Source: an uncultured Caldilineaceae bacterium (GTDB taxonomy: Bacteria; Chloroflexota; Anaerolineae; 4572-78; J111). Taken from it: 64,000 nucleotides of DNA. Both the position numbers and the translations under genes were made by a program. How positions within the stretch are numbered: position 1 is the first letter of the stretch; each line of letters begins with the position of its first letter. The notes beneath the pieces are model-generated. The model saw nothing but the letters and a program-made list of their open reading frames with translations. It did no database searches and was not told where the DNA came from. Positions 1 to 23,377 of the stretch are shown one piece after another. Location: the NCBI GenBank assembly GCA_964622215.1, contig CAZUNT010000009.1, forward strand, positions 2,081 through 66,080. Direction: 5' to 3'.

Positions 1-285
1 GCCCCCCAACACCGAAATCTGGTTACGTTCCCGTTCGTCGACCAGGATAAAAAGGAAAAGTTCCTGTTCGGAAAATTCCTCGATCCTGACCCAGGGCAGG
101 CCATAGCCGGAGGGGCCAATGACCAAATCCAGCGGTTGAGCCGCTTGCAAGGCTTCAACCAGAATTTGGGGATTAGTCCCAATCTCGGCGGAAGGAATGG
201 TCGTGTCCAGAAAAACGTGGCCATTCTCCAGCCCGCAGAGATCGAAGCTCACCGTACCCGGATCGATGCCAATGACTCGCGCCAT
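1..285 (-). CDS. 5' part of an actin/ASKHA-fold ATPase-like protein (DUF1464-like); continues beyond the window start
   Basis: Absent from the ORF track because there is no stop in the window. My translation from the ATG at 285 is MARVIGIDPGTVSFDLCGLENGHVFLD... (95 codons), with an (I/V)GIDPGT phosphate-1 motif. GAAAGGAAGGG lies just upstream. Confidence 0.6.
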   Translation of the reverse strand, partial: MARVIGIDPGTVSFDLCGLENGHVFLDTTIPSAEIGTNPQILVEALQAAQPLDLVIGPSGYGLPWVRIEEFSEQELFLFILVDERERNQISVLGG

Positions 286-318: not shown

Positions 319-3300
319 CTAACCTACCACCATCATTTCTTCACCGGCATGTTCGCTCAGGAGTTGGGCTACCTTCTCGGCCAGGTTGCCAGCTTGGCCG
401 TTTTCTCGAACCGCAGCTACTACCTGGTCGGGCAGTTCAGTCACTGCTCTGGCCAAAAGACGGCTCGCTTTATCTCTGGTTCCCTTTTTGCTGGCAGCAT
501 GGTTAAGGGGAAAAGCAAGCAAGTTCATGGCCTGTATCGTCCTGCCCTCTACCATAAGAAGTTTAGCGAACTCGGTTAAAATATCTAAAACTATCGGCAC
601 AGCATGGGTTTCTTGGGTAGCCTGCAGAGCCTCAAGTAAATATTTTTTGGCTTCTTTGTATTCCCCCAGCGTAAAAGCCACCTCCCCTAAAGCATTAAGG
701 GATTGGGTAATTCCTCGTTGGTAGGCCAGTTTCCTGGCAATGGTCAAACTGTCGGTTAACAGACGCCGGGCCTCCGTGTGCTCCCCTAAGAAAAAGGCTG
801 TATGCCCCAAATAGTACGAGGTCATAGCAATGCCTAAGGAGTAATCCATCTCTTTACACGTTTGCAAAACCTCTTGATGAAGTTGTTTGGCTTCAGTGTA
901 CTCGCCCAGATTCCGGGCCACAGTCCCCAGCAAGTTCATGCAAAAGGCGATGCCGCTACGATAACTGAACGCCTTAAAAATATCCAGGCTCTTTTGAGCC
1001 AGGGCTTTAGCCTCGGTATACTCACCCTGGCTGATGGCGATCACGCCCAGGTATTCCAGAGACAAAGCTTCTTCCCACCGATCACCAATCTCCCTGGCTA
1101 GCTGCAAACTCTCCTGGCAGAGCTGCTTGGCCTCTTCATACTCGCCAAGATTATGGGTGGCGATACCGAGCAAGTTGAGAGAAAAGGCGATGCCACTACG
1201 ATAACCGAACTCCCTAAAAACAGCCAGGCATCTTTGAGCTATCACTTTAGCGTCAACATAATCCCCCAAGCTAATGGCAATCATCCCCAAGTATTCAAGA
1301 ACCCAGGCCTGTTTCCACCGATCCCCCGTTTTTTCGGTTATGACCAAACTTTCCCGGCAAAGTTGTTTGGCCTCTACATACTCACCTAAGGCCCAGGCAA
1401 TCGCTCCCAAATAATTGAGGCTCAGGGGCGAACTCTGGCGGATAGCCGCATCTTGAAAAATAACCAGGCCTTCTTGCATAATGAGTCTGGCTTTGTCGTA
1501 GTGTCCCAGGCTGGCGCAGAAGACGCCTTGTCGAGCCAGAACATGCCCCAACATTTTATCTATATTCCGGTCGGAGTTGATCTTTTCTTTTGCTTTCCGT
1601 AGGCTTGTCGCTGCTTGCCTAAAGACTGTCTCGCCTTCTTGAAACCAGCTCTGCATGTTGTGGACTAAAAATAGGCCCTCACGATAGTTTTCAAAATCCT
1701 TTTCTCTCCTGTTGGCAACGGCCCAATGCCATCCGGCTCGGATATTTTCAATTTCCAGGCCGATAGCCTCTAAGGCTTCCTTTTGCTGCCCTCTTTTCAG
1801 ACGGGCTTCTTGGGCCTGCAAAAATTCGGCGTAATAGCTACAGTGCTGATCCTTGACCTTTTTTTTCTCGACGGGATTCTCTGCCAATTTTTCGGCCCCA
1901 TACTGGCGCACAAGCTCATGGATTTCATAACGATCTGCGGTTGTCCGGCGGAGTAAAGATTTGTCCATTAAAGCCGACAGCAGAAAGGCGGAAGCGCCGA
2001 CGACTTGCCCGGCCGACTTTCGGCTAAAGCCGCCCCAAAAAACAGATAATTTTCTAAATACGCTTCGCTCTTCTTCGGAGAGCAGCCCCCAAGAATGTTC
2101 AAACACGGCCTGTACACTGCGGTGCCGGGGGGGGATATTTTGGAGCGCAGCAATCAAAAAGTTGTAGTTTTTTTCAAGCTCGGCCGCAATCTCTTGACAC
2201 GAGAAGGTGCGGGTCCAGGCCGCGGCCAACTCGATCCCCAGGGGGAGACCCTCGACTAACCGGCAAATACGGGCTACCGCAGGTTTTTCCAAAAAACTCA
2301 GCCAAAAATCTGCCCGGGCCTGCTGGGCCCGCTGTAGAAACAACTGGATAGCGCTATAGTTTTCTATCTGCTGCAGGTCCTCACCCTCGGGAAAAGGAAG
2401 TCCTGGCAGGTCGAGCACCCATTCTTCATAGAGGCCCAAACGTTCCCGCGAGGTAACCAATATTTTCAGGTGAGGGGCGCGCTGTAGAATTTCTACCAAT
2501 AAGTTTGCGCCGGTAATTAAATGCTCAAAGTTGTCCATCACCAGGAGCATTTCTTTGGTGTTGAGGTAATTTAGAAGCTGGGCTTTGGGATCGCCCCGAC
2601 CATAGAGCGGAAAATCGAGCGCGTCGGCAATGGTAGAAACGAGAAACTCGGTTGAACTGGTGGAGACCAAAGGAATGAAGCAGACCCCATGGCGAAACCT
2701 GGTGGTGGTTGCAGCGGCCTGGAGGGCCAGGCGGGTTTTACCAATGCCACCCAGACCGATAATCGTCAGGAGCCGGGAGGTTGGATCGGCCAGGTACTTA
2801 TCAATGAGGGCCAGTTCTGTTTCCCGGCCAATAAAAGAGGTGGCTTGAGCGGGTAAATTATTGAAAGGAGCCTCGGCCTGGGCAAGTAGGAAGGTAGGGG
2901 TGGAGGTTTCTGGACTGGTCGAGGCATTTTCTTCCCGGCCAAACTGGCCCGCCCGAATCTGCTCACCCAACTCAACCGTCTCTTTTGAGGGCTTAACCCC
3001 TAACTCGTCGGTCAGAAAGCGGCAACAAATTTCATATTGAGCCAGGGCCGCGCTGCGCTGCCCGCTTTGGACCAGCAGTAGCATTTTTTGCCGATGGCCT
3101 TCTTCATCACCCGGATCGATGGCCAACAGGCGAGAGATGAATTGGAGGGCCTGTTCCCGTTCATTTTGCCTCGTATAATGAGCCGCCAGGTCTCGTAATA
3201 CTTGCGTCACCCGCCGGCTCCAGCTTGCTTGCTCTAGCCCCAGCCACTGTTCAAACTCGGGGCAATCGTCCAGATACATGCCGGCCATAAATTCACCCCG

Positions 3301-3666
3301 ATACAGGTCGGCGGCCATCATCAAAGAGCTAACTTCACCCCTGGCGACCAGTTCATTGAACACTTTTATGTCCAACCAGGTGGAAGTAGAATAACAAAAC
3401 TGGACCGTATGGCGATTAGCCTCGCAGCAGCCCGGCCACAGGGTTGAAATGTTGTGCAGGGCCTGGCTCAGGTTGTTTCGGCTCCGATCTCCGGCTAAAT
3501 CGGGCCAGAAGAGATCCGCCAGGGTGTCGCGGGAGACGGGTTGGCCCTGGCTGGCCAGGTAGCCAAGCAGAGCCAGGGTTTTACGGGACTTAAAGCCCTG
3601 TAATGGTTCGCCGTTCTGTTCCACCTGGGCAGAACCTAACAACCGGAAACGGAAAAGATGCACCAT
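319..3666 (-). CDS. SARP/BTAD - NB-ARC (STAND) - TPR transcriptional regulator (AfsR-like)
   Basis: N-terminal OmpR/SARP winged helix (KSRKTLALLGYLAS..VSRDTLADLFWPD), a BTAD region, P-loop GLGGIGKTRLA, and many LGEYxEAKQL-type TPRs. Start moved to MVHLF (ATG at 3666) behind a GGGGGGAAG SD. Confidence 0.85.
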   Translation of the reverse strand: MVHLFRFRLLGSAQVEQNGEPLQGFKSRKTLALLGYLASQGQPVSRDTLADLFWPDLAGDRSRNNLSQALHNISTLWPGCCEANRHTVQFCYSTSTWLDIKVFNELVARGEVSSLMMAADLYRGEFMAGMYLDDCPEFEQWLGLEQASWSRRVTQVLRDLAAHYTRQNEREQALQFISRLLAIDPGDEEGHRQKMLLLVQSGQRSAALAQYEICCRFLTDELGVKPSKETVELGEQIRAGQFGREENASTSPETSTPTFLLAQAEAPFNNLPAQATSFIGRETELALIDKYLADPTSRLLTIIGLGGIGKTRLALQAAATTTRFRHGVCFIPLVSTSSTEFLVSTIADALDFPLYGRGDPKAQLLNYLNTKEMLLVMDNFEHLITGANLLVEILQRAPHLKILVTSRERLGLYEEWVLDLPGLPFPEGEDLQQIENYSAIQLFLQRAQQARADFWLSFLEKPAVARICRLVEGLPLGIELAAAWTRTFSCQEIAAELEKNYNFLIAALQNIPPRHRSVQAVFEHSWGLLSEEERSVFRKLSVFWGGFSRKSAGQVVGASAFLLSALMDKSLLRRTTADRYEIHELVRQYGAEKLAENPVEKKKVKDQHCSYYAEFLQAQEARLKRGQQKEALEAIGLEIENIRAGWHWAVANRREKDFENYREGLFLVHNMQSWFQEGETVFRQAATSLRKAKEKINSDRNIDKMLGHVLARQGVFCASLGHYDKARLIMQEGLVIFQDAAIRQSSPLSLNYLGAIAWALGEYVEAKQLCRESLVITEKTGDRWKQAWVLEYLGMIAISLGDYVDAKVIAQRCLAVFREFGYRSGIAFSLNLLGIATHNLGEYEEAKQLCQESLQLAREIGDRWEEALSLEYLGVIAISQGEYTEAKALAQKSLDIFKAFSYRSGIAFCMNLLGTVARNLGEYTEAKQLHQEVLQTCKEMDYSLGIAMTSYYLGHTAFFLGEHTEARRLLTDSLTIARKLAYQRGITQSLNALGEVAFTLGEYKEAKKYLLEALQATQETHAVPIVLDILTEFAKLLMVEGRTIQAMNLLAFPLNHAASKKGTRDKASRLLARAVTELPDQVVAAVRENGQAGNLAEKVAQLLSEHAGEEMMVVG

Positions 3667-3681
3667 CGATCTTCCCCCCAA

Positions 3682-4043
3682 ATTGCAATGCTCTTGGTAA
3701 TGCCTAAAAAGGGATTGGAAACAGTTTGGAAATGATTTAGAAAGACTAAAGGTTTATAATCTTATAACCGTAGAGATTGTAATTTTAGCACAGACAACCA
3801 ATATAGAAAACTTTTGTTAATAAAATGCAAGGGTTTATTTAGTGTTGTCAGCCAATCTCGAACAGCCTGCTTCGCTTCAGTAACTCTCCACAACTAATCA
3901 AGACAGTAGAAAGGAGGTGAGTCATTTAGCCAAATGGTGTTTTGGTAATCCTCAGTGTCTCTCAGCGTAAGTTGGTTGAGGTAAAGAGGCCTCTAAACAT
4001 TCTTAAAAAGATTGTTTTCAATGAAGAAAAGGAGAATTAAATA
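3682..4043. promoter_or_regulatory. AT-rich divergent intergenic region between the SARP regulator and the 513-aa gene
   Basis: 360 bp, markedly AT-rich. TATAAT at 3755-3760 plus further -10-like boxes. AAGGAG SD at 4029-4034, 9 nt upstream of the ATG at 4044. Confidence 0.3.
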
Positions 4044-5585
4044 ATGTCAAAAGCTATCCATGAGGCTATGGTCAAGCAAGCCATGGCGGCGCTCAAGGCC
4101 GATGTAAACAACATCAAAGCCAAGCGGGGTACGGAATTTAAGATCACCGATGCCCAACCCTATGTTGACGCCGTTAATGGCATGAAGGCCGTTGACAATG
4201 AATTACCGGAAGTTATTGCCCTCCATGTCGACTCGGTCAACGCCCACTATGAAATCCTCAAGTCGCTGACCAAAACGGTGCGGCCTGAGGATGATCCCTT
4301 TGTCGAGCATTACCAGACCGGCCCGATTATGGAAATCCTCTATGAAGAGCAACCGGATTTCAAAGCCTCGGTCAAAAAGTTTATTGACGCCATTCCCAAG
4401 AACCGCGCCCTGGTTGGCCGCGAAGCCGCCCGGCTCTATGGCGGGCTGTATGGCCCAACCTGCGTGGTCGACTTTACCCTCAGCCCCGGCTCCACCGCCA
4501 ACGTCGTCAACCGGATTTTGCAGGGGTTAGATATTCCCAAAGATCACAAAAAGACTATTCTGGCGGCCAAATCCTTTGGTATGACCACCTCCTACGGCCT
4601 GGGCGCAGCCTTCAAAGGCTCGGTAGAAAGTGGCAAAACACTCGATCAGGCCCTCGACGACGAAATTGCCACCCTGCAGATGATCTATGATACCCCCTCT
4701 GAGGCCCAAACCAAGATTATGCTGGGCCACAACCTGGGCGGGCATGGCGGCCACAATTCCTTCGATACGGCCGAATACCAGAAGCAATACAAAGCGCGCA
4801 TGAAGCCGACCGTCAAGGCGGCCCTGGCCAAAGGCGTGCATCCGGGCAATGTCGTCTGCGTTCCGGCCTATTGTGTGGGTGACGTGGCTCACCACAACAG
4901 CCAGACCATGTTCAACTTTGCTCAAGACCCCATTGTCATGGCTATTTTTGAGGCTCACACCGAAGCCCTCGAAAGCACCCTGAAGCGCGGCCTGGATCAG
5001 GGCTTCAAGAATGAGTACGGGGTGGTCGGGCTGGCGGTTGGCACGAGTGCGGCCTTGATGGCCTATGAATTCCTGCTGGATTACATGCCGATCCCCAGCA
5101 TCATCGAGCTGCTGGTCAACCGCTTCCACAACATGGTGGCCATGAACCCCAACCGCGACTCGGCGGCCGAGCTGCACAACGTGGACCTGATGATGTCCAT
5201 CTGGCGCGGCTGGAACATCCTCAAACCCAAGCCGCTGGGCGGCGGCGGCGAAATTGACGGGGTCAAGATTGATCTCGGCCCGGTTGACAAGCACGACGTG
5301 CTGGCCAATATCCATCGCTACACCTATCCGCCCTGCGCCATCACCCAACGCGTGGGCACCATGCTCAAGTTCGCCGACTTCCCCTGCTTGCTGACCAGCG
5401 AGCCGGTCACGGCGACCCTGCTGACCCACGTCGTGGCCCAGCATCCCGAGTCGGCCTCCTTCCCGCTGCGCATTGATAAGGATTGGGGCGCGACCGAGTA
5501 CCGTTTCATCAATACCGGCCTGGGTGTCAAAGGCTTTGGCGCTGACCCCGTGGTTGGGTACGAGCAACGCGCTGCGAGCGTCTAA
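4044..5585 (+). CDS. Conserved-looking hypothetical protein (513 aa), family not recognised
   Basis: Long ORF in the native GC context with a strong SD. Soluble-looking, with no P-loop, Cys cluster or TM segment. Motifs GGHGGHNSFD and GGGGEIDG. First gene of the C1 block. Confidence 0.8.
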   Translation: MSKAIHEAMVKQAMAALKADVNNIKAKRGTEFKITDAQPYVDAVNGMKAVDNELPEVIALHVDSVNAHYEILKSLTKTVRPEDDPFVEHYQTGPIMEILYEEQPDFKASVKKFIDAIPKNRALVGREAARLYGGLYGPTCVVDFTLSPGSTANVVNRILQGLDIPKDHKKTILAAKSFGMTTSYGLGAAFKGSVESGKTLDQALDDEIATLQMIYDTPSEAQTKIMLGHNLGGHGGHNSFDTAEYQKQYKARMKPTVKAALAKGVHPGNVVCVPAYCVGDVAHHNSQTMFNFAQDPIVMAIFEAHTEALESTLKRGLDQGFKNEYGVVGLAVGTSAALMAYEFLLDYMPIPSIIELLVNRFHNMVAMNPNRDSAAELHNVDLMMSIWRGWNILKPKPLGGGGEIDGVKIDLGPVDKHDVLANIHRYTYPPCAITQRVGTMLKFADFPCLLTSEPVTATLLTHVVAQHPESASFPLRIDKDWGATEYRFINTGLGVKGFGADPVVGYEQRAASV

Positions 5586-5613
5586 GTAGCGTTCAGAAAT
5601 AACTTTTCGTTTC

Positions 5614-5646
5614 AGACCCTAAAGGCCTCCGAGACCTTTAGGGTCT
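5614..5646 (+). terminator. Intercistronic stem-loop (possible attenuator or mRNA stability element)
   Basis: Perfect 12-bp stem AGACCCTAAAGG/CCTTTAGGGTCT with a 9-nt loop, between the 513-aa gene and mtd. The U tract is weak. Confidence 0.3.
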
Positions 5647-5673
5647 TAGTTATGACCCAAAAAGGCGGTGCTC

Positions 5674-6531
5674 ATGAAAAAACTCTTAATCCAACTGGAC
5701 AGCGATAAACACCCCAGCTCCTTTGACCGCATCGTGCCCTACGACGCGGACGTTGACGATGTGCTCAGCTATGGTAATGTGACCGTTGAAGATGTGCCGG
5801 CGCTGGTACAGGGGGGCTTTTTCACCCGCGGCGTGCCCGACTTAAAACATACCGCGATTTGGATCGGCGGTTCTCACGTGCCAACCGGTGAGGCCCTGCT
5901 GGCAGCCGTTCGAAAATCCTTCTTTGGCCCCTTTAAACTTTCGGTGATGCTCGATTCTAACGGTTGTAACACCACTGCGGCTACGGCGGTGGCCAAGATT
6001 GTCAAGGCTCTGGATATACGCGACCAGCGGGTCGTGGTAGGAGCCGGCACCGGGCCGGTTGGGATGCGGGCGGCCGGGTTGTTGGCCGGCGAGGGCGCTA
6101 AAGTCACGCTCACCTCCCGCGCCCTGGAACGGGCCCAGGCTGCTGCCGCAACCGTCAGCGAACGTTTTGGGGTAAAGGTGGAGGGGGCAGTGCTGGCCGA
6201 CGACGCTTCGGCCCGCCAGACCCTGGAGGGCGCAGTCGCCCTGTTTACCTGCGGGACCGCAGGCGCGCAGCTAGTCAGCCAGGCCGTCTGGACCGGCATC
6301 TCCAGCCTGAAGCTGATTGCCGATATCAATGCCGTGCCGCCGCTGGGCATCGAAGGGATTGATATGAACGATAATGGGAAGGAGCGGGAAGGCCGTATTT
6401 CCTTTGGGGCGCTTGGCATCGGCGGGCGTAAAATGAAGGTGCATCGCACCTGCATCGCCAGGCTGTTTGAAGCCAACGATATTATCATGGACGCCGAGTT
6501 GGTTTATAAAGTGGCCAAGGAGTTGGTGTGA
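5674..6531 (+). CDS. mtdA: NAD(P)-dependent methylene-tetrahydromethanopterin dehydrogenase (MtdA/MtdC type)
   Basis: Collinear with my memory of M. extorquens MtdA: MKKLLIQLDSD.., FFGPFKLSVMLDSNGCNTTAATAVA, GTGPVGMRAAGLLAGEGA, FGALGIGGRKMKVHRTCIARLFE. Start set to the ATG at 5674. Confidence 0.9.
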   Translation: MKKLLIQLDSDKHPSSFDRIVPYDADVDDVLSYGNVTVEDVPALVQGGFFTRGVPDLKHTAIWIGGSHVPTGEALLAAVRKSFFGPFKLSVMLDSNGCNTTAATAVAKIVKALDIRDQRVVVGAGTGPVGMRAAGLLAGEGAKVTLTSRALERAQAAAATVSERFGVKVEGAVLADDASARQTLEGAVALFTCGTAGAQLVSQAVWTGISSLKLIADINAVPPLGIEGIDMNDNGKEREGRISFGALGIGGRKMKVHRTCIARLFEANDIIMDAELVYKVAKELV

Positions 6532-6605: not shown

Positions 6606-7754
6606 ATGAACAGCCAGGTACAGCCCATTTTACTGGCCGGATTAACCGTGCGCATGCTGGCCGAACTGGCCGTGCAGGCGGGTTACGAGGTGACAGCGCT
6701 GGATTATTTTGGCGACTTCGACCTGCAGGCGCTCTGCCCCGTCCGTTCACTGCTGCGAGATTACGGCCAGGCTTACGACGTGCCGGCCCTGGTCAATGCC
6801 GCCGGCGACATGGCTGCGCCGGCCGTAGTTTACAGCGCCAACCTGGAGAATTTCCCTGAAGCCGTAGCCCGCTTGGCCCAGGGGCGACAACTCCTCGGCA
6901 ATACCCCGGAGACGCTGGAACAGGTGCGCAATCCGCTTCGTTTGGCCGCCGCTTTGCGGGCCGGAGGCTTTGCTTTTCCCGAAACCTTCATCTCCACAGC
7001 CGGCCTTGCCCCCGACGCGGCCCGGCGCTGGCTGTGGAAACCACTCTCCAGCGGCGGTGGGCATGGTGTTCGACTCTGGCGTAATGGGCGCTCGCCGGAG
7101 GGGGGCGTGTTCCAGGAGCGCCTGGGGGGGATGGTCGGCTCGGCCTCGTTTGTGGCTGATGGCCGGCAGGCGGTTTTGCTGGGGTTGACCGAACAACTGG
7201 TGGGGCAACCTGCCTTTGGCGCTGCCGGATTTAACTATTGCGGCAATCTTGTCCCTCCTTCCATCCCGCCGGACGAACTGGCTGCCTTGCTCCGGGAGGT
7301 ACGGGCTATTGGGTCGCACCTGACCGAGATTTTTGGACTGCGCGGCCTCAACGGGGTGGATTTCATCTGGCAGGCCGGGCGCGCCTGGACCATCGAGGTC
7401 AATCCCCGGCCGTCGGCCTCGCTGGAGTTACTTGACTTGGCCTACGGGCTGCGCGTGTTCGATGCTCATGTGCGTTCGTTTAGCGACCAGTTGCCAGATT
7501 TTGACCTGGAACAAGCCCTGGTCGGTGGCGCGGCGGCAGGCAAGGCGATTGTGTATGCGCCGTATGATCTGAATGTGGGCGATACCGGCGACTGGGCTGC
7601 CCGAGGTATCCGTGATATTCCTCACCCCGGAGAGCAGATCAGCCGCCAGCAGCCGGTCTGTACCATTCTGACCACTGCCGCCTCACCCCTGGCTTGCCTG
7701 CGCCAGCTTCAAGCGCAGGCAGCCGAAATAAAGAGATGGTTCAAACGAGTGTGA
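6606..7754 (+). CDS. ATP-grasp enzyme of the H4MPT/MFR-linked set (Orf5/COG2232-like)
   Basis: 382 aa with ATP-grasp-like layout (WLWKPLSSGGGHGV, GLNGVDFI..IEVNPRP). Positioned in the C1 cluster. Confidence 0.7.
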   Translation: MNSQVQPILLAGLTVRMLAELAVQAGYEVTALDYFGDFDLQALCPVRSLLRDYGQAYDVPALVNAAGDMAAPAVVYSANLENFPEAVARLAQGRQLLGNTPETLEQVRNPLRLAAALRAGGFAFPETFISTAGLAPDAARRWLWKPLSSGGGHGVRLWRNGRSPEGGVFQERLGGMVGSASFVADGRQAVLLGLTEQLVGQPAFGAAGFNYCGNLVPPSIPPDELAALLREVRAIGSHLTEIFGLRGLNGVDFIWQAGRAWTIEVNPRPSASLELLDLAYGLRVFDAHVRSFSDQLPDFDLEQALVGGAAAGKAIVYAPYDLNVGDTGDWAARGIRDIPHPGEQISRQQPVCTILTTAASPLACLRQLQAQAAEIKRWFKRV

Positions 7755-8132: not shown

Positions 8133-8474
8133 ATGGCCGAAACAATGACCCTGATTGCCGGTCGCTCAAGCAAGCAGGGTGCCAGTCTGAATGTCAGCAA
8201 ACTGGAAGGCGAGTACGCTGAGATTACGACCACCGTGGAAATGAATGTCGACGATATGGCTCGCCTGGGGCTAAAAGAGGGCGACAGCGTGCGGTTGTGT
8301 TCGGCTACGGGCGAGACGATCGTCCGTTGCAAAGGACGCAAGGCCGAGGATTTACCCGCCGGAGTATTATTCCTGGCCTATGGCCCCGCGTCGAGTCAAC
8401 TGATGAGCAGCGACACCGCCGGTACCGGTATGCCGATTTCGAAGAACCTGGATGTCGAAGTTGAGCCGCTTTAA
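8133..8474 (+). CDS. fwdD: Formylmethanofuran dehydrogenase subunit D (molybdopterin dinucleotide-binding beta-barrel)
   Basis: 113 aa, LIAGRSSKQG...VEMNVDDMARLGLKEGDSVRL...GVLFLAYGP. Typical FwdD/FmdD size and motifs. Confidence 0.8.
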   Translation: MAETMTLIAGRSSKQGASLNVSKLEGEYAEITTTVEMNVDDMARLGLKEGDSVRLCSATGETIVRCKGRKAEDLPAGVLFLAYGPASSQLMSSDTAGTGMPISKNLDVEVEPL

Positions 8475-8931: not shown

Positions 8932-10275
8932 ATGAGTGACAATATTCGTATTATCGAAAATGCAACCTGTACCTTCTGCGGCTGTGTTTGCGATGATATG
9001 GTCCTGACCGTAGACTTGGACCAAAAGCGCATCACCAAGACCAAAAATGCCTGTGTGTTGGGCAAAGCCTGGTTTAGCGAACATGTCGTGGAAAATCGCC
9101 CTTTTGCCCTGATTGACGGTAAGGAAGCCACCACGGCCGAAGCCGTCGAGTCGGCGGCGCAAATCCTGGCCCAGGCCTGTTATCCGGCGATTTATGGTTT
9201 GAGCGATACCACCTGCGAGGCTCAGCGCCAGGCCGTCGCCATTGCCGATATGCTCGGCGCAAATATCGGCACCACCAGCGAGGTGTGTCACGGGCCGTCG
9301 GGGATTGCCTTCCAGGGCGTCGGCGAGAGTACGGCTACGCTGGGCGAAATTAGAAACCGGGCCGACTTGGTCATCTTCTGGGGCAGTAACCCGGCTGAGT
9401 CCCACCCCCGCCACTTTGCCAGGTACTCGGTCACGCCCAAGGGCATGTTCGTTCCCAACGGCAAGAAAGACCGCACCGTTGTGCTGGTGGACGTGCGCCG
9501 CACCCCCAGCGCGCCGGTGGCCGACATCTTTATCCAGGTGAAACCGCGCCGGGATTTTGAATTGCTGTGGGCTTTGCGCGCCCTGGTCAAGGGCCAGCGG
9601 GTTGATCCCTCCGTGGAGGAGCTGACCGGCGTTTCCCTGGCCGCGATGCAGGATTTGGTCGAGCGCATGAAGAAGTGCCGGTATGGAGTGTTGTTCTTTG
9701 GGATGGGCCTGACCATGACTCGAGGCCGGCATTTTAACACGGGGGCGCTGATGTCCCTGGGCACCGATCTAAACGAATTTACCCATTTTGTGGTCAAACC
9801 GATGCGCGGCCACGGCAACGTCACCGGGGCCGATAATGTCGTCGCCTGGCAGACGGGGTTTCCCTTTGCCGTCAATTTCAGCCGAGGTTATCCCCGTTTT
9901 AACCCAGGTGAGTTTTCTGCGGTTGACCTGCTGGCGCGAGGTGAAGCCGATGCGCTGCTGGTCATTGCCAGCGACCCGGCCTCCAATTTTGCGCAGGGGG
10001 CCATCGACGCGATGCACCGTATCCCGGTCATCGTGCTCGATCCCAAATTTACCCATACCGCCCGGTTGGCTCGCGTCGCTTTTACCACCGCTACCTACGG
10101 TATCAACGTAGCCGGTACGGCCTATCGGATGGACGATGTGCCCATCACCCTCCGTCCCGCCTTCGAGTCCCCCTACCCCAGCGATGAGGAAGTGCTCACG
10201 GCCATCAGGAAGCGGCTGCAAGAACTGTTGAAGGATAGACCGGTCCAGGTCATGCCGCCGGTGGGGGGGGCGTAA
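8932..10275 (+). CDS. fwdB: Formylmethanofuran dehydrogenase subunit B (molybdo/tungstopterin subunit family)
   Basis: N-terminal CTFCGCVCDD...NAC Fe-S-like cysteine pattern, a TSEVCHGPSG (Cys-His) motif, and IFWGSNPAESHPRH. 447 aa. Confidence 0.85.
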   Translation: MSDNIRIIENATCTFCGCVCDDMVLTVDLDQKRITKTKNACVLGKAWFSEHVVENRPFALIDGKEATTAEAVESAAQILAQACYPAIYGLSDTTCEAQRQAVAIADMLGANIGTTSEVCHGPSGIAFQGVGESTATLGEIRNRADLVIFWGSNPAESHPRHFARYSVTPKGMFVPNGKKDRTVVLVDVRRTPSAPVADIFIQVKPRRDFELLWALRALVKGQRVDPSVEELTGVSLAAMQDLVERMKKCRYGVLFFGMGLTMTRGRHFNTGALMSLGTDLNEFTHFVVKPMRGHGNVTGADNVVAWQTGFPFAVNFSRGYPRFNPGEFSAVDLLARGEADALLVIASDPASNFAQGAIDAMHRIPVIVLDPKFTHTARLARVAFTTATYGINVAGTAYRMDDVPITLRPAFESPYPSDEEVLTAIRKRLQELLKDRPVQVMPPVGGA

Positions 10276-10504: not shown

Positions 10505-11686
10505 ATGAAACATTTGCTAATTGCGACTATTGCTGGACTTGCACTTGTAATGGTGACTGGTGGCATTCTTGTAGCACTAGCAAGTAGCCCTCTATATCAG
10601 ACAACAGCAATGAAAAATATAATACCTCTGACATCTTCCTGTGATAAGGGTCCAATTAATCCTCCTGATTTGGCAACCGGTAACTTGGAGGAAGATGCCA
10701 AGGATTGGGGTGTCTTCTGTGATTTGGGGACGCCGACATGGGTCTTAACAGATGTTACAACACCGGCACTTGACGGCAAATCACTTCGTTGCTCAATTAC
10801 CGGAGGTCAACCCAATTCTCATGTGCATTGCTATAGAAACTTACTATCAGAACCAGCAGCGAGTGTTTTTGTACTGACCATGCCCTTTTATTTTACCCCT
10901 GCAACAACATGTAACAACCAAGGGGAATCTTCCATAATCCAAGCACTTGAATTCACCATGAGCAAGTGGCATCAGGGTCAACGCTATGAGTTTGCCGTTC
11001 AATGGGAAAATGTTGCCGAGACTCCTGGGGATGGCGCTCCTCAGTGGCGCTATTGGAATTCCTCTCAATGGGTGCCTTTCAACCCCAAAATCACCCAATG
11101 CCTAGCAGCAGGACAGTGGTACACCCTTACGTTGGAAGGGGAGATTGTTAATAGTCAAGTGCATTACCACAGATTTGCTATTACTAATACGAATCATATT
11201 CTTGATTTGACAGTTCCTCCCATTCCTGACTCAGCGCATGATGATGGCCTAGCGATTGCCGTTCAACTGGATGGAAATTTCCAAGAGGATGCTTATGATG
11301 TATTTGTTGATCGAGTAAGCTTCGTGAGAAAGCCCGCTCTAAGCGTGACCAAACAAGCTAACCCCAGTCCAGTGCAGGATGGAGCACAACTGAAATACAC
11401 TATCCATGTCACTAATAATACGAATGTGACTCTCACTGCTACTGTAACAGACATCTTGCCAAGCTATGTCGCACCTAGCGAAGTCCTTGTTTGGACGCCG
11501 ACTATCACTGCACCCGGTGGCGTCTGGACACAACAGACTATCGTCACTGTTGAGACGGGTTTTACAGGATCACTGACCAACAAGGTTCAAGCCACGACTG
11601 GGGGAGGCGTTATAGATACAGCTAGTGTCACAGTCTGTGCCAATTATTGTCTTACATATCTTCCAATAATTCTAAAGAATTCATGA
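10505..11686 (+). CDS. Membrane-anchored/secreted protein with a C-terminal DUF11-like repeat domain
   Basis: N-terminal TM helix. C-terminal LKYTIHVTNNTNVTLTATVTDILP is a DUF11-type motif. The gene is AT-richer than its neighbours. Confidence 0.6.
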   Translation: MKHLLIATIAGLALVMVTGGILVALASSPLYQTTAMKNIIPLTSSCDKGPINPPDLATGNLEEDAKDWGVFCDLGTPTWVLTDVTTPALDGKSLRCSITGGQPNSHVHCYRNLLSEPAASVFVLTMPFYFTPATTCNNQGESSIIQALEFTMSKWHQGQRYEFAVQWENVAETPGDGAPQWRYWNSSQWVPFNPKITQCLAAGQWYTLTLEGEIVNSQVHYHRFAITNTNHILDLTVPPIPDSAHDDGLAIAVQLDGNFQEDAYDVFVDRVSFVRKPALSVTKQANPSPVQDGAQLKYTIHVTNNTNVTLTATVTDILPSYVAPSEVLVWTPTITAPGGVWTQQTIVTVETGFTGSLTNKVQATTGGGVIDTASVTVCANYCLTYLPIILKNS

Positions 11687-11882
11687 TGATAAAAATGTGA
11701 GTATCAAATCAACCCAAGGTCCGCCCACCGGCTTGCACCCGACTGCCTACCAGCCGGTTTATCAACCACACTTTGCCAGCGAAAATGCCTTTGATTGGGA
11801 TGAGGCTTGCTGGCCCGGCAGTAGGTGAAGTCGAAGCGTTGGGTGGATGAGAATGACGAACAACATTATGATGAAATGAGAT

Positions 11883-12530
11883 ATGGAAAATCAAATCGTT
11901 ACTCGACAAATCATAGAAAAGTGTATTTTATGTCTAGTAAATGAATTCTTACAAGAACCATTTACTTTTTTTAATGAAGCAGAAGCCGTAACTCGATTTC
12001 ATAAGCTACTCATTGGCGAACAAAGTTTTAGTCGTTCAGTAAAAACCCAAGATGGTCACGAGATTAGTCAAATTCACCTGGAATACCCAACACCTTTTGC
12101 AAAAGAAGACTCATCAAAACGCCAAGAGGCGTATGGTAAATATGACGTTACTATTCTAAATCCTGAATATATTAAAAATAATCAAGTTGATGATGTAGCA
12201 AAGCCTGATCTAAAATCCAGACGAGACAACGAGCCAAAACCATTTATAGCAACAATTGAGTTGAAGTTACACTATGAGTCATTGGGTAAAAATCGTGCGG
12301 ATGATATTGTGGCCGCTTTACTCAAACTAGATTTAAGTCAAAAATACACAGAATTTCGATATTTGATATGTTTGCAAAGATATCTTGATAGAAATTTAAA
12401 TAAGTGGAACGAAAATTGGCCTATAGTTGAAAAAGCGCAGAGTAAGTATGATATATCTAGCATAATAGGAATATATTGGCGACGGTTTCCGGAAAATAAA
12501 CCGAAAATTTATTTTGGAAAGTGGTTGTAA
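11883..12530 (+). CDS. Hypothetical protein, possible PD-(D/E)xK nuclease fold
   Basis: AT-rich ORF of 215 aa. YDVTIL ... IELK spacing is compatible with a D...ExK motif. This is weak evidence. Confidence 0.45.
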   Translation: MENQIVTRQIIEKCILCLVNEFLQEPFTFFNEAEAVTRFHKLLIGEQSFSRSVKTQDGHEISQIHLEYPTPFAKEDSSKRQEAYGKYDVTILNPEYIKNNQVDDVAKPDLKSRRDNEPKPFIATIELKLHYESLGKNRADDIVAALLKLDLSQKYTEFRYLICLQRYLDRNLNKWNENWPIVEKAQSKYDISSIIGIYWRRFPENKPKIYFGKWL

Positions 12531-12779
12531 ACACAAAAAGGTTCATAAGTAGCGACGTTGCATGCAACGTCGCTACAAAATTAGACAATATTCGGCATAT
12601 TACCGAGAATTGGATAACCGTTGAAAATTAGCGAGAAAGCCGGCGCTGTTATGCAAGCTCGATGATTGAAATCATCGGCTGATACAGGAAGTGCGTTCAA
12701 AACGCACTAGACGGCTGTATTTCAACCCGTTTCAACGGGTTTTCCATTACCAGCGGGGCGTTTCAACGCTTCGCTCCAA

Positions 12780-12876
12780 GGCCGGTAAGTTTACAGTACC
12801 GCCATAATAATGTATTCGGAAACCCATTTTTAAGGCTGATTCGTAGTGAAGTAGAAGCGCTGGTAGATGAAAAGAC
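12780..12876 (+). pseudogene. Decayed fragment duplicating codons about 38-70 of the 13261-13611 gene
   Basis: About 90% identical by eye to 13375-13470 (…AAGTTACAGTACCGCC…GGAAACCC…TTTTTAAGGCTGATTCG…GAAGTAGAA…CTGGTAGATGAAAAG), with a 1-nt indel and an in-frame stop. Confidence 0.7.
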
Positions 12877-12903
12877 CTAATGTCTGATGTGAAAAGACAA
12901 TTT

Positions 12904-13098
12904 GGACCACGAAAACTTCGGCACTGGGTTCACTTAATGAGAAACAGAAAAATGGAACACAGAGAACACGGAGAAGTCACAGAGTTCACAAAGAATCTCT
13001 GAGTTCTCTGTGTCTTCTTTGTGTTCTCTGTGTTAAAATCTTAAAATTCCATTGAGCGACCCCAGTACTTCGAAATAGCGCGAAAAATGTCGTGGTCC
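12904..13098. repeat. CACAGAG/CACGGAG-heptamer hairpin element (same core as 20133-20296)
   Basis: The core ACACGGAGAAGTCACAGAGTT is shared with 20183-20203. The outer stem is GGACCACG/CGTGGTCC. Confidence 0.6.
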
Positions 13099-13260
13099 CA
13101 AAGATGTTGGGCATTTCCAATACATCTTAAGGACCGAGGCTGAATCCGTCGGTCACGCAAGCGAGAGCGAAGCCCTAATGGGCTGGATTCTTAGCTCGCA
13201 GAGCTTCGCCCTCTCAGCGCGGCGGCTTCAGCCCCGCGCTATAATCGAGGAGTAGATTCG

Positions 13261-13611
13261 ATGTACCCTGGCGAAGCAGATTCTATTTGGACCAAAAAAG
13301 GGGCTACGCTGAGTGACAAATCGGCTCGAAAAGAGTTTGGGTTGACCCAAGAAGAAATTATTGAGGGAATCAGGGCCGGCAAGTTACAGTACCGCCAGAA
13401 TAATGTGTTCGGAAACCCCTTTTTAAGGCTGATTCGCAGTGAAGTAGAATCGCTGGTAGATGAAAAGTATGGAAATAACTACCTTAAGCAGAAAAAACTC
13501 AAGCAGGAGTTAACCCAGGTCAATGCAGAACTAAAGCGATTGAAAGCTCAAGTAGCCTCCCTGGAACAGAGAAAAGCTGAGTTACTGGCTAGTTTTAATG
13601 AAAATGTCTGA
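13261..13611 (+). CDS. Small protein with an excisionase/MerR-like HTH-type N-terminal half and a C-terminal coiled coil
   Basis: LTQEEIIEGIRAGKLQY...LRLIRSEVESLV resembles Xis-type wHTH. The C-terminus KQELTQVNAELKRLKAQVASLEQRKAELL is a heptad coiled coil. Confidence 0.5.
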   Translation: MYPGEADSIWTKKGATLSDKSARKEFGLTQEEIIEGIRAGKLQYRQNNVFGNPFLRLIRSEVESLVDEKYGNNYLKQKKLKQELTQVNAELKRLKAQVASLEQRKAELLASFNENV

Positions 13612-13658
13612 GGCGTTACTTTCATCGGCAAGAACCATGGGGGAGGAAGGAAAATAAC

Positions 13659-14354
13659 ATGCCTGTCTTTCATCGTGAGCGGCACCGGACCCAGCACATC
13701 GGCTGGCTGCGTGCCGCCGTTTTGGGCGCAAACGACGGTATCGTCTCCACCGCCAGTCTGGTGGTCGGGGTGGCTGCGTCAAATTCTACCCACAATGCAG
13801 TGCTGGTGGCCGGTGTTGCCGGTTTGGTGGCCGGCGCCATGTCTATGGCGGCGGGCGAGTATGTTTCGGTCAGCTCGCAGTCGGATACCGAACAGGCGGA
13901 TCTCGAGCGGGAGCGAACGGAACTTGCGACCGATAAAGATAACGAGAAAAAAGAGCTGGCCGCCATCTACGTTGAACGGGGACTTGAAGCCGGGCTTGCC
14001 CAACAAGTCGCTGAACAATTCATGACCAGGGATGCGCTGGCCGCCCATGCCCGGGATGAACTCGGCATCTCCGAAACGATCACCGCCCGGCCTGTTCAGG
14101 CCGCGCTGACATCCGCTGCAACGTTTGCCGTTGGCGCTGCCCTCCCTCTACTTGTCGTCATCGTTGCGCCTGCCGCTAACCTGGGGCTGTTTGTGGCCGG
14201 AACTTCGCTCTTCTTTCTCGCCCTGCTGGGAGCACTAGCGGCTTATACCGGCGGGGCGCGCATCCTCGTCGGCACGGCCCGGGTCACCTTCTGGGGCGCT
14301 CTGGCTATGGCCCTGACGGCCGGCGTAGGCGCTTTGTTTGGAACGACGGTGTGA
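13659..14354 (+). CDS. VIT1/CCC1-family iron/manganese transporter
   Basis: [37 protein letters not shown] plus C-terminal TM helices are typical of the VIT family. Confidence 0.8.
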
Positions 14355-14454
14355 AAACGCTTACAGGGAAGGTTACCAGATAAATTATAACTTTTTATCC
14401 TCACGCTGGGATGCGGCCCGGAAGCCGCAACCTATGGAAAGGCAGGGTGACTGT

Positions 14455-16101
14455 ATGACAGCAACATTTCGGATTGTCAACGGTCGGGTGTATGACCCGA
14501 TCAACGGCATAGACGGCGAGGTGCGCGACGTGTGTGTGCAGGACGGCAAAATCGTCGAGAGCGTGCCACCGGAGGCCAAACGGATTGACGCCACAGGCAT
14601 GGTGGTCATGCCCGGTGGGGTGGATATTCACTGTCACATCGCCGGCCCCAAAGTCAACATGGCCCGCAAGTTGCAGCCCGAAGATCACCGCTTCGACGTT
14701 CAGCCACGCACGGCCTTCACTCGTTCCGGTACGGGCGGCACGGTGCCATCCACCTTCGCCACCGGTTATCGTTATGCGGCCATGGGCTATACTACGGCTA
14801 TGGAAGCTGCCGTCCCTCCCCTGGGGGCGCGCCACACCCTGGAAGAATTGCACGATACGCCCATCATTGATAAAGGCTTCTACGTCCTCATGGGTAATAA
14901 TGTGCTGCTCTACCGGCTGCTCAAAGAGGGCCGCTATGAAGAGTTCCGCGAGGCCGTAGCCTGGTGGCTGAATGCCAGCCGGGCCTATACCATCAAGCTG
15001 GTCAACCCCGGCGGTGACGAACCCTGGAAGGGGCAGCGTAACGCCAACATCACCAATCTGGGCGAAGAAATTGACGCCTTTGGCTTTACCCCGCGCCAGA
15101 TCATCAAGGCCCTCATCGATGCGGCCGACGATCTGGGTTTGCCCCACCCGGCCCACATTCACTGCAACAATCTGGGCCTGGCCGGCAACTCCGATACGAC
15201 CCTGGAAACTATGCGCGCCGCCGACGGCCGCCGCGCCCACCTGACCCATATTCAGTTTCATTCCTACGGGGGCGAGTTTGGCCGCAAACCGACCTCCAAG
15301 GCCGCCGAGATTGCCGAATACATCAACACTCACCCGGAGATTAGCGCCGATGTCGGCCAGGTGATGTTTGGCAAAGCCACCGGCATGACCGCCGATGCAC
15401 CGCTGGGTTGGATGCTGCGCCGGATCAGCGGCAACAAGTGGGTTAATGCCGACACCGAACACGAGAGCGGCTGCGGTATCGTCCCCTTTGCCTACAGCGA
15501 TAAAAATTATGTCCATTCCTTGCAATGGGGTATCGGGCTGGAGTTATTACTGCTAACCAAAGACCCCTGGCGTATGATCCTGTCCACCGACCATCCCAAC
15601 GGCGGCTCTTTTATGAGTTATCCCAAACTGATTCGTCTGCTGATGGATCGCCAGTTTCGGGCTGAGCAGGTCCGCTCGGTCAACCAAAAGGCGATGGAGC
15701 AAACCGTCTTGTTGGATGGCCTGGAGCGTGAGTACACTCTGCGAGAGATCGCCATCATCACCCGCGCCGGCCCGGCCAAACTGCTGGGGCTGCGGCACAA
15801 AGGCCACCTGGGTGTCGGCGCTGATGCGGATATTACCATCTACATGGAGCAGGACGACAAAGAGGAAATGTTCAGCACTCCACGCTACGTGTTCAAAAAC
15901 GGCCAGATCATCATCGAAGGCGGCGAATTTCGAGCTGACTGCGATGGACGAATTCTGCATGTAGCACCCGACTACGACCCCAAAATCGAGCAGATCATCC
16001 GGCCTTTCTTCGAGGACTACTACTCCATCCAGTTTGAGAACTACGCCGTCAGTGAAAAATATCTACATCAGCATCAAGTGACGCCAACGGCTAATCAGTG
16101 A
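14455..16101 (+). CDS. fwdA: Formylmethanofuran dehydrogenase subunit A (amidohydrolase)
   Basis: [15 protein letters not shown]..., [13 protein letters not shown] (HxH), [17 protein letters not shown]. Start moved to the ATG at 14455, giving 548 aa. Confidence 0.9.
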
Positions 16102-16168: not shown

Positions 16169-16194
16169 TACAACTATTTTTGAGGAGCAGGGCT

Positions 16195-17100
16195 ATGTAT
16201 ATCCAAAATACCGAAATTGTTGATACCTTTGCCGAAGCTTTCAAGATGTGGGCAGCGCGGGTCATCATCACCGCCGAGACACCCCAGTGGGCGATGAACG
16301 CGGCCCTGTCGATGACCGGCTTCGCCACTTCGATTATTGGCTGCAAGTGCGAGGCCGGGATCGAGGCGGAACTGCCGCCCGCCGAAACATTGGATGGACG
16401 CCCCGGCGTAAGCGTGCTGTTTTTTACGGTTAAAGCCGACGATATGGGTAAGCGCCTGTTAGAGCGGGTGGGCCAGTGCGTGCTGACCTGTCCGACTACG
16501 GCCTGTTTTGATGGACTACCGGCCGAACAAAGCGTTGTCGTCGGTGGGCAGTTGCGCTTTTTTGGCGATGGCTACCAGATCAGCAAGGTCTTGGAGGGCC
16601 GGCGTTTCTGGCGTATCCCGGTCATGGAGGGCGAGTTTTTGGTTGACGAGCGCTTTGGGGTCCAGCCGGCCATTGGCGGCGGCAATATTCTGATTCTAGG
16701 CCGGAATGTGACTGCCACCTTGCACGCGACCGAGGCGGCTGCGGCGGCGATGCGGACCGTGCCCGGCGTCATTTTGCCCTTCCCCGGCGGGATCGTCCGC
16801 AGTGGCAGCAAGACACGCTCTCGCTACAAGGGGTTGTTCGCCTCCACTAACGACGCCTTCTGTCCCACCCTGCGCGGCTTTGCCATCGAAACCCAGGTGC
16901 CGCCTGAGGCGGGCTGCGTGCTGGAAATTGTGATTGATGGGCTAGATCTGCCGGCGGTCGAGGAGGCCACGCGGCGGGGTATGATTGCGGCGGCTGAAAC
17001 GGGCGATGCCTTGCAAATATCGGCCGGTAACTACGGCGGAACACTGGGCCAGTATCAAATCAAGCTGCACAGTGTGTTAGATGGAGTTAGTGTTCAGTAA
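16195..17100 (+). CDS. ftr: Formylmethanofuran:tetrahydromethanopterin N-formyltransferase
   Basis: MYIQNTEIVDTFAEAFKMWAARVIITA...SMTGFATSIIGC is typical of Ftr/FhcD. 301 aa from the ATG at 16195 (GAGGAG SD). Confidence 0.9.
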   Translation: MYIQNTEIVDTFAEAFKMWAARVIITAETPQWAMNAALSMTGFATSIIGCKCEAGIEAELPPAETLDGRPGVSVLFFTVKADDMGKRLLERVGQCVLTCPTTACFDGLPAEQSVVVGGQLRFFGDGYQISKVLEGRRFWRIPVMEGEFLVDERFGVQPAIGGGNILILGRNVTATLHATEAAAAAMRTVPGVILPFPGGIVRSGSKTRSRYKGLFASTNDAFCPTLRGFAIETQVPPEAGCVLEIVIDGLDLPAVEEATRRGMIAAAETGDALQISAGNYGGTLGQYQIKLHSVLDGVSVQ

Positions 17101-17224: not shown

Positions 17225-17236
17225 GTGAGGAATCCT

Positions 17237-20128: not shown

Positions 20129-20132
20129 GCAC

Positions 20133-20296
20133 CTTACGAGTCAGATTCTTGTACATTGAGCAAGAAGTTGTTACACAGAGAGACACGGAGAAGTCACAGA
20201 GTTTCACGGAGGGATTTTTAGAGCATCTCTGTGCGCTTCGCGTCTGTGAAAACTCCGTGTAACTCCGTGTTCCTTTTTGGTTCTGGCTCGTCCAAG
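20133..20296. mobile_element. MITE-like CACAGAG/CACGGAG-heptamer hairpin element with an 8-bp target-site duplication
   Basis: Direct repeats TTAGGCAC at 20125-20132 and 20297-20304; the left copy contains the mptN TAG stop. Imperfect TIRs CTTACGAGTCAGA / (rc) CTTGGACGAGCCAGA. Confidence 0.65.
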
Positions 20297-20374
20297 TTAG
20301 GCACTTAAGAATCGAGTCGTTGCTCATTGGGCAAGAAAATCATTGCAACCAATTGCGCGAATTAAACAACTTTT

Positions 20375-21268: not shown

Positions 21269-21270
21269 GC

Positions 21271-21556: not shown

Positions 21557-21581
21557 GAGCATGCCAGGGGACATGAGCCTT

Positions 21582-22073: not shown

Positions 22074-22094
22074 CGAAAGAAGGAGACCCAAGAA

Positions 22095-22463: not shown

Positions 22464-22520
22464 TGACCAAAATTTTTGTTCTAATCCGTGTCAATCAGTG
22501 TTTATCCGTGTGACAAGATG

Positions 22521-22637
22521 ACAACCGAATGAATTCGGTCGCTGAGATGAAAAACCTGTTAGAAACAGGTTGATTTGGCCCCAAATAACGTGTTTCTAAC
22601 ACGTTTCCCGTCTCAGGCTGCGAATTCATTCGCAGAC
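22521..22637. mobile_element. 117-bp multi-hairpin MITE-like element, family F, copy 2 (same orientation as copy 1)
   Basis: Differs from 21368-21484 at only a handful of positions. Confidence 0.7.
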
Positions 22638-23359: not shown

Positions 23360-23377
23360 AACCATCCTAAAATAGGA

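Follow-up and report, generated by a model that had tools for sequence, protein, structure and literature searches.

We analysed a 64-kb stretch of DNA (64,000 nucleotides of contig CAZUNT010000009.1, hereafter the window) from an uncultured Caldilineaceae bacterium, in which a protein of the DUF2193 family is encoded at the head of a block of tetrahydromethanopterin (H4MPT) and methanofuran genes for one-carbon (C1) metabolism. The open reading frame (ORF) at 4044–5585 on the plus strand starts with ATG and encodes 513 residues, a product of ~57 kDa. The original prediction, made from the sequence alone, had called this protein unplaceable. It is in fact a clear member of DUF2193 (PF09959), the very family that the prediction had named for checking and one with a biochemically characterised member (PMC12375889). 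The Pfam match scored 644 bits against a gathering cut-off of 25, and positions 2–481 of the 498-position profile aligned to residues 4–483 of the protein, while an NCBIfam scan gave no match. The gene and the elements around it are as follows.

319–3681, minus strand: regulator of 1120 residues with BTAD (SARP-type), NB-ARC/AAA and TPR domains (Pfam)
3715–3743, plus strand: three direct repeats TTRGAAA with an exact 11-bp spacing (alignment and shuffle test)
3755–3760, plus strand: TATAAT, a -10-like hexamer 11 nt past the last repeat (sequence; conserved in the alignment of relatives)
3909–3995, plus strand: conserved leader blocks, namely a Shine-Dalgarno-like GAAAGGAGGTG (~3910–3920) and a GAGGTAAAG..CCTC hairpin (~3977–3995) (upstream alignment)
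4029–4034, plus strand: Shine-Dalgarno sequence AAGGAG, 9 nt before the ATG (sequence; AAAGGAG kept in relatives)
4044–5585, plus strand: DUF2193 family protein (Pfam PF09959, E=1.6e-193; AlphaFold predicted local distance difference test (pLDDT) 92.4; comparison of the C-terminal tail)
5614–5646, plus strand: stem-loop with a perfect 12-bp stem AGACCCTAAAGG/CCTTTAGGGTCT and no U-tract (folding)

The gene neighbourhood was compared across 80 DUF2193 loci from different species (70 bacterial and 10 archaeal), in which the genes of the window were mapped and all ORFs were clustered de novo. H4MPT/methanofuran genes were present in 59 of the 70 bacterial loci. At least 8 kb of flanking sequence was available for 55 of them, and of these 53 held such genes and 51 a core C1 enzyme; in the two exceptions the sequence ended 0.2–1.6 kb downstream of DUF2193. 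The usual order, on one strand, was DUF2193, mtd, ATP-grasp, fwdD, fwdB and fwdA, followed by ftr, fwdC, mch and a RimK-type ligase gene or else by an HPPK-MptA fusion, and DUF2193 was mostly first on its strand, beside mtd or mch. According to record titles, the bacterial carriers belonged to Chloroflexota, Actinomycetota (Thermoleophilia), Synergistota (Acetomicrobium), Caldisericota, Syntrophobacter, Armatimonadota and Bacillota (Neomoorella, Desulfosporosinus, Peptococcaceae and Formimonas). Among the ten archaeal loci, full C1 linkage was found in a Bathyarchaeota locus only. H4MPT genes were already known in these phyla, and H4MPT/methanofuran genes have been described as scattered in Chloroflexota, Actinomycetota, Bacillota, Synergistota and other phyla (PMC5020050). 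Our literature search found no paper tying DUF2193 to them. The gene had been placed at the head of an H4MPT C1 block in the window by the original prediction; this position is conserved across bacterial phyla, and the homologues are syntenic with mtd, mch and fwd genes. These results indicate that DUF2193 is a conserved first gene of bacterial H4MPT/methanofuran operons, which is new here.

In the window, DUF2193 is followed by these genes.

5668–6531, plus strand: methylene-H4MPT dehydrogenase, MtdA/B-like (Pfam Mpt_N, E=3.7e-27)
6606–7754, plus strand: ATP-grasp enzyme, a candidate for cofactor biosynthesis (Pfam ATP-grasp_3; syntenic in 52 of the 80 loci)
8133–8474, plus strand: FwdD-like subunit (NCBIfam FwdD, E=1.4e-20, under the strict cut-off; syntenic in 47 loci)
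8932–10275, plus strand: formylmethanofuran dehydrogenase subunit B (TIGR03129, 505 bits against a cut-off of 328)
14338–16101, plus strand: formylmethanofuran dehydrogenase subunit A (TIGR03121, 727 bits)
16180–17100, plus strand: formylmethanofuran:H4MPT formyltransferase, Ftr (Pfam FTR and FTR_C)
17225–18055, plus strand: formylmethanofuran dehydrogenase subunit C (TIGR03122, 274 bits)
18259–19212, plus strand: methenyl-H4MPT cyclohydrolase, Mch (Pfam MCH, E=3e-130)
19217–30900, mixed strands: cofactor (H4MPT/methanofuran) biosynthesis genes (Pfam and NCBIfam)

The operon encodes Mtd, Mch, Ftr and FwdDBAC, which lead from methylene-H4MPT to CO2, together with the synthesis of the cofactors. 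The last region includes genes for a MptN-like RimK ligase, a CitG-like protein, an HPPK-MptA fusion, an MfnF-like protein and an amino-acid kinase, as well as MfnB (minus strand), an MptH-like protein, DUF447 and a GHMP-kinase-fold protein, which we take to be the beta-RFAP synthase MptG. The fusion is a single ORF (23534–25024) that joins HPPK to an MptA/FolE2-type GTP cyclohydrolase, and its counterparts come after fwdA in the Thermoleophilia and Synergistota loci. TrmO-like and GIY-YIG genes are scattered within the same region. Two motifs are retained in FwdB, CxxCxxxC for a cluster at the N terminus and EVCHG, the latter presumably contributing the Cys-His of the Mo/W active site. These motifs and the presence of fwdD suggest that the enzyme is a genuine dehydrogenase yielding CO2 and not a hydrolase complex that forms formate; the cluster showed no gene for a ferredoxin-type partner. 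The cluster resembles that of Proteobacteria (fae, mtdB, mch, fhcCDAB; PMC5020050) in carrying Mtd, Mch, Ftr, subunits A, B and C of Fwd/Fhc and cofactor genes, but differs from it in being of the archaeal type, with fwdD, a full FwdB match and DUF2193 at its head. The gene fwdD is missing from Proteobacteria and Planctomycetes (PMC5020050). Between fwdB and fwdA of the window lie ~4 kb (10505–14354) that encode a DUF11 repeat protein, two ORFs without a family and a VIT1 iron/manganese transporter. These two fwd genes are contiguous in L002, L007 and L010; the VIT1 gene is common to L003 and L008, and orf13261 to L001.

Searched with a profile, 1.84 billion representative proteins yielded 178 DUF2193 matches (E<=0.001), ~12 of them full length and the others fragments, and no members of other families were among them; DUF2193 is a small, closed family. 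One representative of 617 residues (P0122) lacks the Cys tail and is extended at its N terminus by 134 residues, which may be a true fusion or a gene-calling artefact. The AlphaFold model of the window protein, made with 68 homologues, was confident (pLDDT 92.4, predicted template modelling score 0.92) and all-alpha, with 25 helices. No structural relative was found when the model was compared with the PDB by Foldseek (best E=0.15, TM at most 0.15), and phmmer and profile searches of PDB sequences gave chance matches only. The protein is predicted to be a soluble all-alpha DUF2193 member whose fold has no solved relative, the last point also being new here. Because the known C1 enzymes have solved structures and the PDB searches were empty, kinship to Fae, Mer, MtaB, Hmd and pyrroloquinoline quinone dehydrogenase was rejected, and the earlier statement that the protein resembles no C1 enzyme is borne out by sequence, profile and fold searches alike. 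The motifs GGHGGHNSFD and GGGGEIDG, which had also been pointed out, are both present in the translation. GGHGGH was rejected as a functional motif and is not a family feature, because its HNLGGH part is a 6-residue, lineage-specific insertion that is absent from the aligned Bacillota and archaeal homologues. Outside the tail, the core of the protein is 53–95% identical across bacteria and archaea, and the divergent archaeal cluster representatives share just 23–37% identity with the window protein.

The sole characterised DUF2193 protein is Mvol_0354 (MvoDUF2193) of Methanococcus voltae (PMC12375889; PMC9431491). Each subunit carries one [4Fe-4S] cluster, for which the C-terminal motif CX2CX6DX2(H/C)X2C, termed a unifying feature of DUF2193 by the authors, is the assigned site; the apo protein forms tetramers and the holo protein is largely monomeric (PMC12375889). 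The same study reported the family mainly from methanogens, found a MIP/aquaporin gene adjoining 91% of the methanogen homologues, described the Methanococcus maripaludis homologue as non-essential yet advantageous, and suggested Fe-S trafficking or sensing as the function (PMC12375889). The window protein belongs to the same Pfam family over its full length, both proteins are predicted to be mainly helical (PMC12375889), and relatives of the window protein also adjoin a MIP/aquaporin gene. It differs from Mvol_0354 in that it lacks the C-terminal motif and an adjacent MIP gene, and in that its gene is the first of an H4MPT/methanofuran operon, a setting that PMC12375889 does not describe.

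In an alignment of 20 homologues, the tail of the window protein and its clade reads RIDKDWG...GYEQ where the other homologues have R.CK.CA...YC.W. The motif cysteines are all substituted (by Asp, Trp or Glu) in this clade, and the last Cys of the window protein is C448, so that its tail is Cys-free. The motif was absent in 11 of 11 clade loci (L001–L011), which represent Caldilineae/Ardenticatenia-type Chloroflexota, Symbiobacteriaceae and Caldinitratiruptor. A homologue from Chloroflexia outside the clade (L060, 10001–11527) has lost the motif separately, with the tail VDKGSA...YDEW, in which Asp and Ser stand in for Cys. Since its proposed ligands have been substituted, the [4Fe-4S] cluster is predicted to be absent in the window protein. 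Since the Fe-S tail was lost while the core was kept, the tail would be regulatory or structural and not catalytic. The family and its Fe-S tail are already published; the natural tail-less variant is new here.

A MIP gene adjoins DUF2193 in 40 of the 80 loci. In 38 of these it starts 78–265 bp downstream; the other two, L072 and L073, have it immediately upstream and on the other strand. The pairing was seen in Thermoleophilia, Bacillota, Syntrophobacter, Methanoperedens, Methanosarcinaceae and Archaeoglobus. When aligned to Escherichia coli AqpZ, all of the adjacent MIPs showed the selectivity filter F-I-(A/S/Q)-R. By this filter they are classed as AqpM type, in which Ile replaces the His of water-specific aquaporins (PMC3287591). 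The pairing with AqpM-type channels is here extended to bacteria, which is new. In Desulfosporosinus (L078) the MIP gene is followed by a GHMP-kinase-fold gene, which we read as MptG-like, and by genes for a flavoprotein, an MptH-like protein and DUF447, and then by mtd; Thermoleophilia have a similar gene set with a flavin mononucleotide (FMN) reductase. Literature searches for methanediol and aquaporin, and for aquaporin and H4MPT clusters, found nothing relevant. A small Cys-rich DUF2180 zinc-ribbon ORF (Pfam E=1.2e-35) also adjoins DUF2193 in five loci (L024, L053, L057, L077 and L051), which belong to Thermoleophilia and, in one case, to the archaeal Methanosarcinaceae; no relevant paper on DUF2180 was found in a literature search. 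In the Methanosarcinaceae locus (L051, 5268–9406), DUF2193, DUF2180, an AqpM-type MIP and a haem catalase are encoded on one strand.

The original prediction had described an AT-rich divergent region that the gene shares with a SARP/NB-ARC/TPR regulator, and the GC scan and Pfam agree. The intergenic region is 362 bp long (3682–4043), and GC content is 39% over 3601–3900 against ~50–60% in the flanks. The BTAD match of the regulator was strong (E=1.5e-19) and the match to the Trans_reg_C winged helix was weak (E=0.048, below the cut-off). A homologous regulator occupies the same position in L001, L002, L003, L007, L008 and L010, and the divergent regulator is a likely activator of the DUF2193 operon. 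The triple TTRGAAA repeat occurs once in the window and in 0 of 100 shuffles, and is kept in L001, L002, L003 and L008, which makes it a candidate binding site for the SARP-type activator. A sigma-70 scan was empty because there is no consensus -35 element, as would be expected of an activator-dependent promoter. Phased repeats followed by TATAAT would be the layout of a SARP-type-activated promoter, and this fits the divergent BTAD regulator. The implied 5′ leader is ~280 nt long, and its conserved blocks were seen in an upstream alignment of the window and four relatives. No Rfam family, riboswitches included, was found in the window, the leader or seven related loci; the leader (3780–4043) may be an undescribed cis-regulatory RNA.

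At the other end of the gene, the 85-nt region that contains the hairpin (5586–5670) folded at -24.1 kcal/mol, and 5 of 200 shuffles were equally stable, while in a sliding-window test of the hairpin itself 0 of 40 shuffles were as stable. No U-tract follows the stem, the tail being TAGTTATGA. The terminator scan did not list the hairpin because the T-run is missing, and a canonical terminator after the DUF2193 gene was rejected for the same reason. A strong hairpin lies 3′ of DUF2193 in 10 of 10 clade loci, with unrelated sequences, and in 8 of the 10 none of 40 shuffles folded as well; the hairpin of L007 has a T-run and is a full terminator. The hairpin of the window is probably a partial terminator or a stabiliser of the mRNA 3′ end. 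The sequence and the folding thus reproduce the AAGGAG motif 9 nt before the ATG and the perfect 12-bp stem before mtd that had been described, and the hairpins of the clade support the accompanying idea that the first gene is made in excess. Judged by these signals, expression of DUF2193 probably exceeds that of the genes downstream.

Regulators of other types are found beside DUF2193 elsewhere. A sigma-54 activator with GAF and PAS domains lies directly upstream, on the same strand, in 11 Bacillota loci (L013–L016, L033, L040, L041, L043, L064, L067 and L078), where a small-molecule signal may act on the operon. An HTH_10 protein adjoins DUF2193 in Archaeoglobus and Methanoperedens. Dedicated regulators of the SARP, sigma-54 GAF-PAS and HTH_10 types therefore adjoin the gene in three lineages.

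Our preferred reading, to which we give a probability of roughly 0.4, is that DUF2193 serves H4MPT/methanofuran-linked C1 metabolism as an accessory enzyme that processes a small neutral solute of AqpM-type channels. The operon would probably be switched on by the divergently encoded SARP-type regulator, with DUF2193 in the promoter-proximal position, and the cytoplasmic protein would act on, or 'trap', a small uncharged solute let in by the channel. The most plausible solutes would be C1 species such as formaldehyde/methanediol, or CO2, the choice of solute being much less certain than the rest. In oxygen-exposed lineages, including that of the window, the channel gene and the oxygen-labile Fe-S tail would have been lost and the core retained. 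Formaldehyde/methanediol, CO2 and formic acid are the only small neutral solutes of the route, which favours a solute-processing enzyme. An accessory role in uptake or processing also fits the MIP neighbour of 91% of the methanogen homologues and the phenotype in M. maripaludis, where the homologue is dispensable yet gives an advantage (PMC12375889).

Glycerol kinase traps what the GlpF channel admits. The DUF2193 loci resemble the GlpF-GlpK pair in that a MIP channel and a soluble protein are encoded by immediate neighbours, and DUF2193 is tetrameric in its apo form and non-essential but advantageous (PMC12375889). They differ from it in that DUF2193 has no kinase fold and its activity is only presumed, in that the channel is of the AqpM type with a narrow, more hydrophobic filter (PMC3287591) rather than an aquaglyceroporin, and in that the clade of the window has lost the channel gene. 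The more specific idea that DUF2193 and an AqpM-type aquaporin form a two-part system for uptake and capture of an uncharged C1 compound (formaldehyde/methanediol or CO2), feeding the H4MPT/methanofuran pathway, is tentative and on balance doubtful.

Several observations weigh against a solute-processing enzyme. The activity of DUF2193 family members is at the stage of a proposal. Only R28, Q91, P148, E207, P218, N269 and G389 are invariant across the whole family, no obvious catalytic or metal site is conserved beyond the tight clade, and the core Cys residues of that clade are not retained family-wide. There is no MIP gene in the window, and an adjacent MIP is absent in the clade of the window and in most Anaerolineae, Synergistota and Caldisericota; because this clade is without an adjacent channel gene, the trapping logic is indirect for the window locus. 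AqpM is not an H2S channel, and its physiological solute is not established (PMC3287591). Two further observations point to redox stress, namely the 13-fold rise in Mvol_0354 abundance in pyrite-grown M. voltae (PMC12375889) and the catalase of L051 (Pfam Catalase, E=9e-199).

The pyrite response is among the evidence for the published proposal on M. voltae DUF2193, a redox- or Fe-S-responsive sensor, regulator or Fe-S carrier, in which the cluster and disulfides would switch the protein between tetramer and monomer and so tune the channel or the pathway. The lone [4Fe-4S] cluster of each subunit, the contrast between apo tetramer and holo monomer, and the co-purification with RNA polymerase subunits, Hfq and CRP speak for it as well (PMC12375889; PMC9431491), and glutaredoxin-like, FMN-reductase and nitroreductase genes lie near DUF2193 in some loci. 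We nevertheless consider it unlikely: the tail is Cys-free in the clade of the window and L060 lost the motif separately, yet the core remained 53–95% identical and the operon position was kept; a dedicated DNA-binding regulator already adjoins DUF2193 in three lineages; and the strong Shine-Dalgarno sequence, first position and hairpin suggest an abundance that would be unusual for a regulator. A role in biosynthesis, modification or repair of H4MPT or methanofuran, such as the unassigned late side-chain addition of archaeal-type cofactors, appears slightly less likely again. It would suit an operon rich in MptA-HPPK, MptH-like, GHMP-fold (MptG candidate), DUF447, ATP-grasp ligase, MfnB and MfnF genes, and the presence of DUF2193 in archaea and in bacteria with archaeal-type clusters carrying fwdD and fwdB. 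Proteobacterial methylotrophs, which make truncated cofactors, are not known to carry DUF2193, and this also counts in its favour. However, the M. maripaludis homologue is non-essential (PMC12375889) whereas the cofactors are indispensable for methanogenesis, and this role is therefore limited to a dispensable modification. It also leaves the conserved aquaporin pairing unexplained, and no nucleotide-binding or other cofactor-enzyme signature was detected in the 513-residue protein with Pfam and NCBIfam. Pyrite generates H2O2, and a defence against peroxide or other oxidants, in which the AqpM-type channel would pass H2O2 and DUF2193 would detoxify it or shield oxygen-sensitive H4MPT/Fwd chemistry, would account for induction on pyrite. 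Such a defence is also in keeping with STRING partners that have FMN and rubredoxin-like domains (PMC12375889), with the catalase directly after DUF2193-DUF2180-AqpM in L051 and with the nitroreductase genes near DUF2193 in Methanoperedens loci. It is nonetheless improbable, given that the catalase link is confined to a single locus, that the bacterial synteny is with C1 genes and not stress genes, and that no peroxidase-like motif or fold was found by Pfam and Foldseek.

The entry of the C1 unit onto H4MPT had appeared unaccounted for in the window, and the DUF2193 protein had been put forward for this step, in effect as a non-homologous Fae substitute that condenses formaldehyde with H4MPT. 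Its first position directly before mtd, its Fae-like expression architecture and the absence of fae within 10 kb of DUF2193 in 76 of the 80 loci (tblastn) agree with that idea. As had been noted, the window itself has no fae, and neither Pfam scans of the ORFs nor tblastn queries with Fae detected one there. Among the four closest relatives, however, three (L002, L003 and L008; DUF2193 94–95% identical) gave tblastn matches to Fae 5.7–7.3 kb upstream of DUF2193, so that the cluster of these relatives has a true fae (Pfam Fae E=1.5e-72 in L003), and in L049 fae (E=1.2e-74) lies inside the operon, between mtd and the ATP-grasp gene (DUF2193-mtd-fae). The order in L003 and L008 is fae (minus strand), a glutaredoxin-like ORF (plus), DUF1464 (minus), the regulator (minus) and DUF2193 (plus), and the window matches it up to its edge, where the following feature lies.

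1–285, minus strand: 5′ part (95 codons) of a DUF1464 gene, truncated by the window edge (six-frame translation; Pfam E=4.4e-20)

These bases correspond to the first 95 residues of the DUF1464 gene as in L003 and L008. Because the window shares the DUF1464/regulator order of these loci, fae probably lies ~1.5–2 kb outside it. Its absence from the window is probably an effect of where the window ends, and a fae gene in this genome is likely but not certain; in L001, fae was absent at the corresponding position. Fae (PF08714) and DUF2193 are alike in being encoded in H4MPT clusters beside mtd and in being expected to be strongly expressed. They differ in size (~170 against ~510 residues), there is no Pfam Fae match and no sequence or fold relation, and both genes coexist in one cluster in L002, L003, L008 and L049. 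Methanogens generally carry fae, and a formaldehyde-activating enzyme is on record from Methanoperedens, a DUF2193-carrying genus. A homologue search with a Chloroflexota Fae as query gave >8000 matches, few of them with organism names. In the clade of the window DUF2193 is probably not a stand-in for Fae, and a Fae substitute is on this evidence very unlikely, which weakens the earlier proposal by the yardstick it had set itself; the weaker form of the earlier proposal, a role in substrate entry, may still apply.

A conserved, apparently highly expressed first gene whose product has its own fold is an obvious missing piece of bacterial H4MPT/methanofuran operons. The same gene pairs with AqpM-type aquaporins, whose natural solute has been a question since H2S was excluded (PMC3287591). 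The published study dealt with methanogens alone (PMC12375889), and the bacterial operon context and the Cys-free variants redirect its Fe-S question; these variants are ready-made cluster-free controls and should handle easily in air. If the two-part uptake and capture were true, it would provide the first physiological substrate for AqpM-type channels and a new-fold enzyme in the C1 metabolism of methanogens, methane-oxidising archaea and many bacterial phyla. DUF2193 is thus a testable lead on the role of the bacterial H4MPT module and on the AqpM solute rather than a solved mechanism.

Downstream of the cofactor genes, the window contains a large nonribosomal peptide synthetase cluster on the minus strand (38832–60839) with condensation, adenylation and carrier domains. 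Its loading module carries a formyltransferase domain, a TubC-type docking domain and a terminal reductase are present too, and a gene for a 4′-phosphopantetheinyl transferase adjoins it at 37825–38472.

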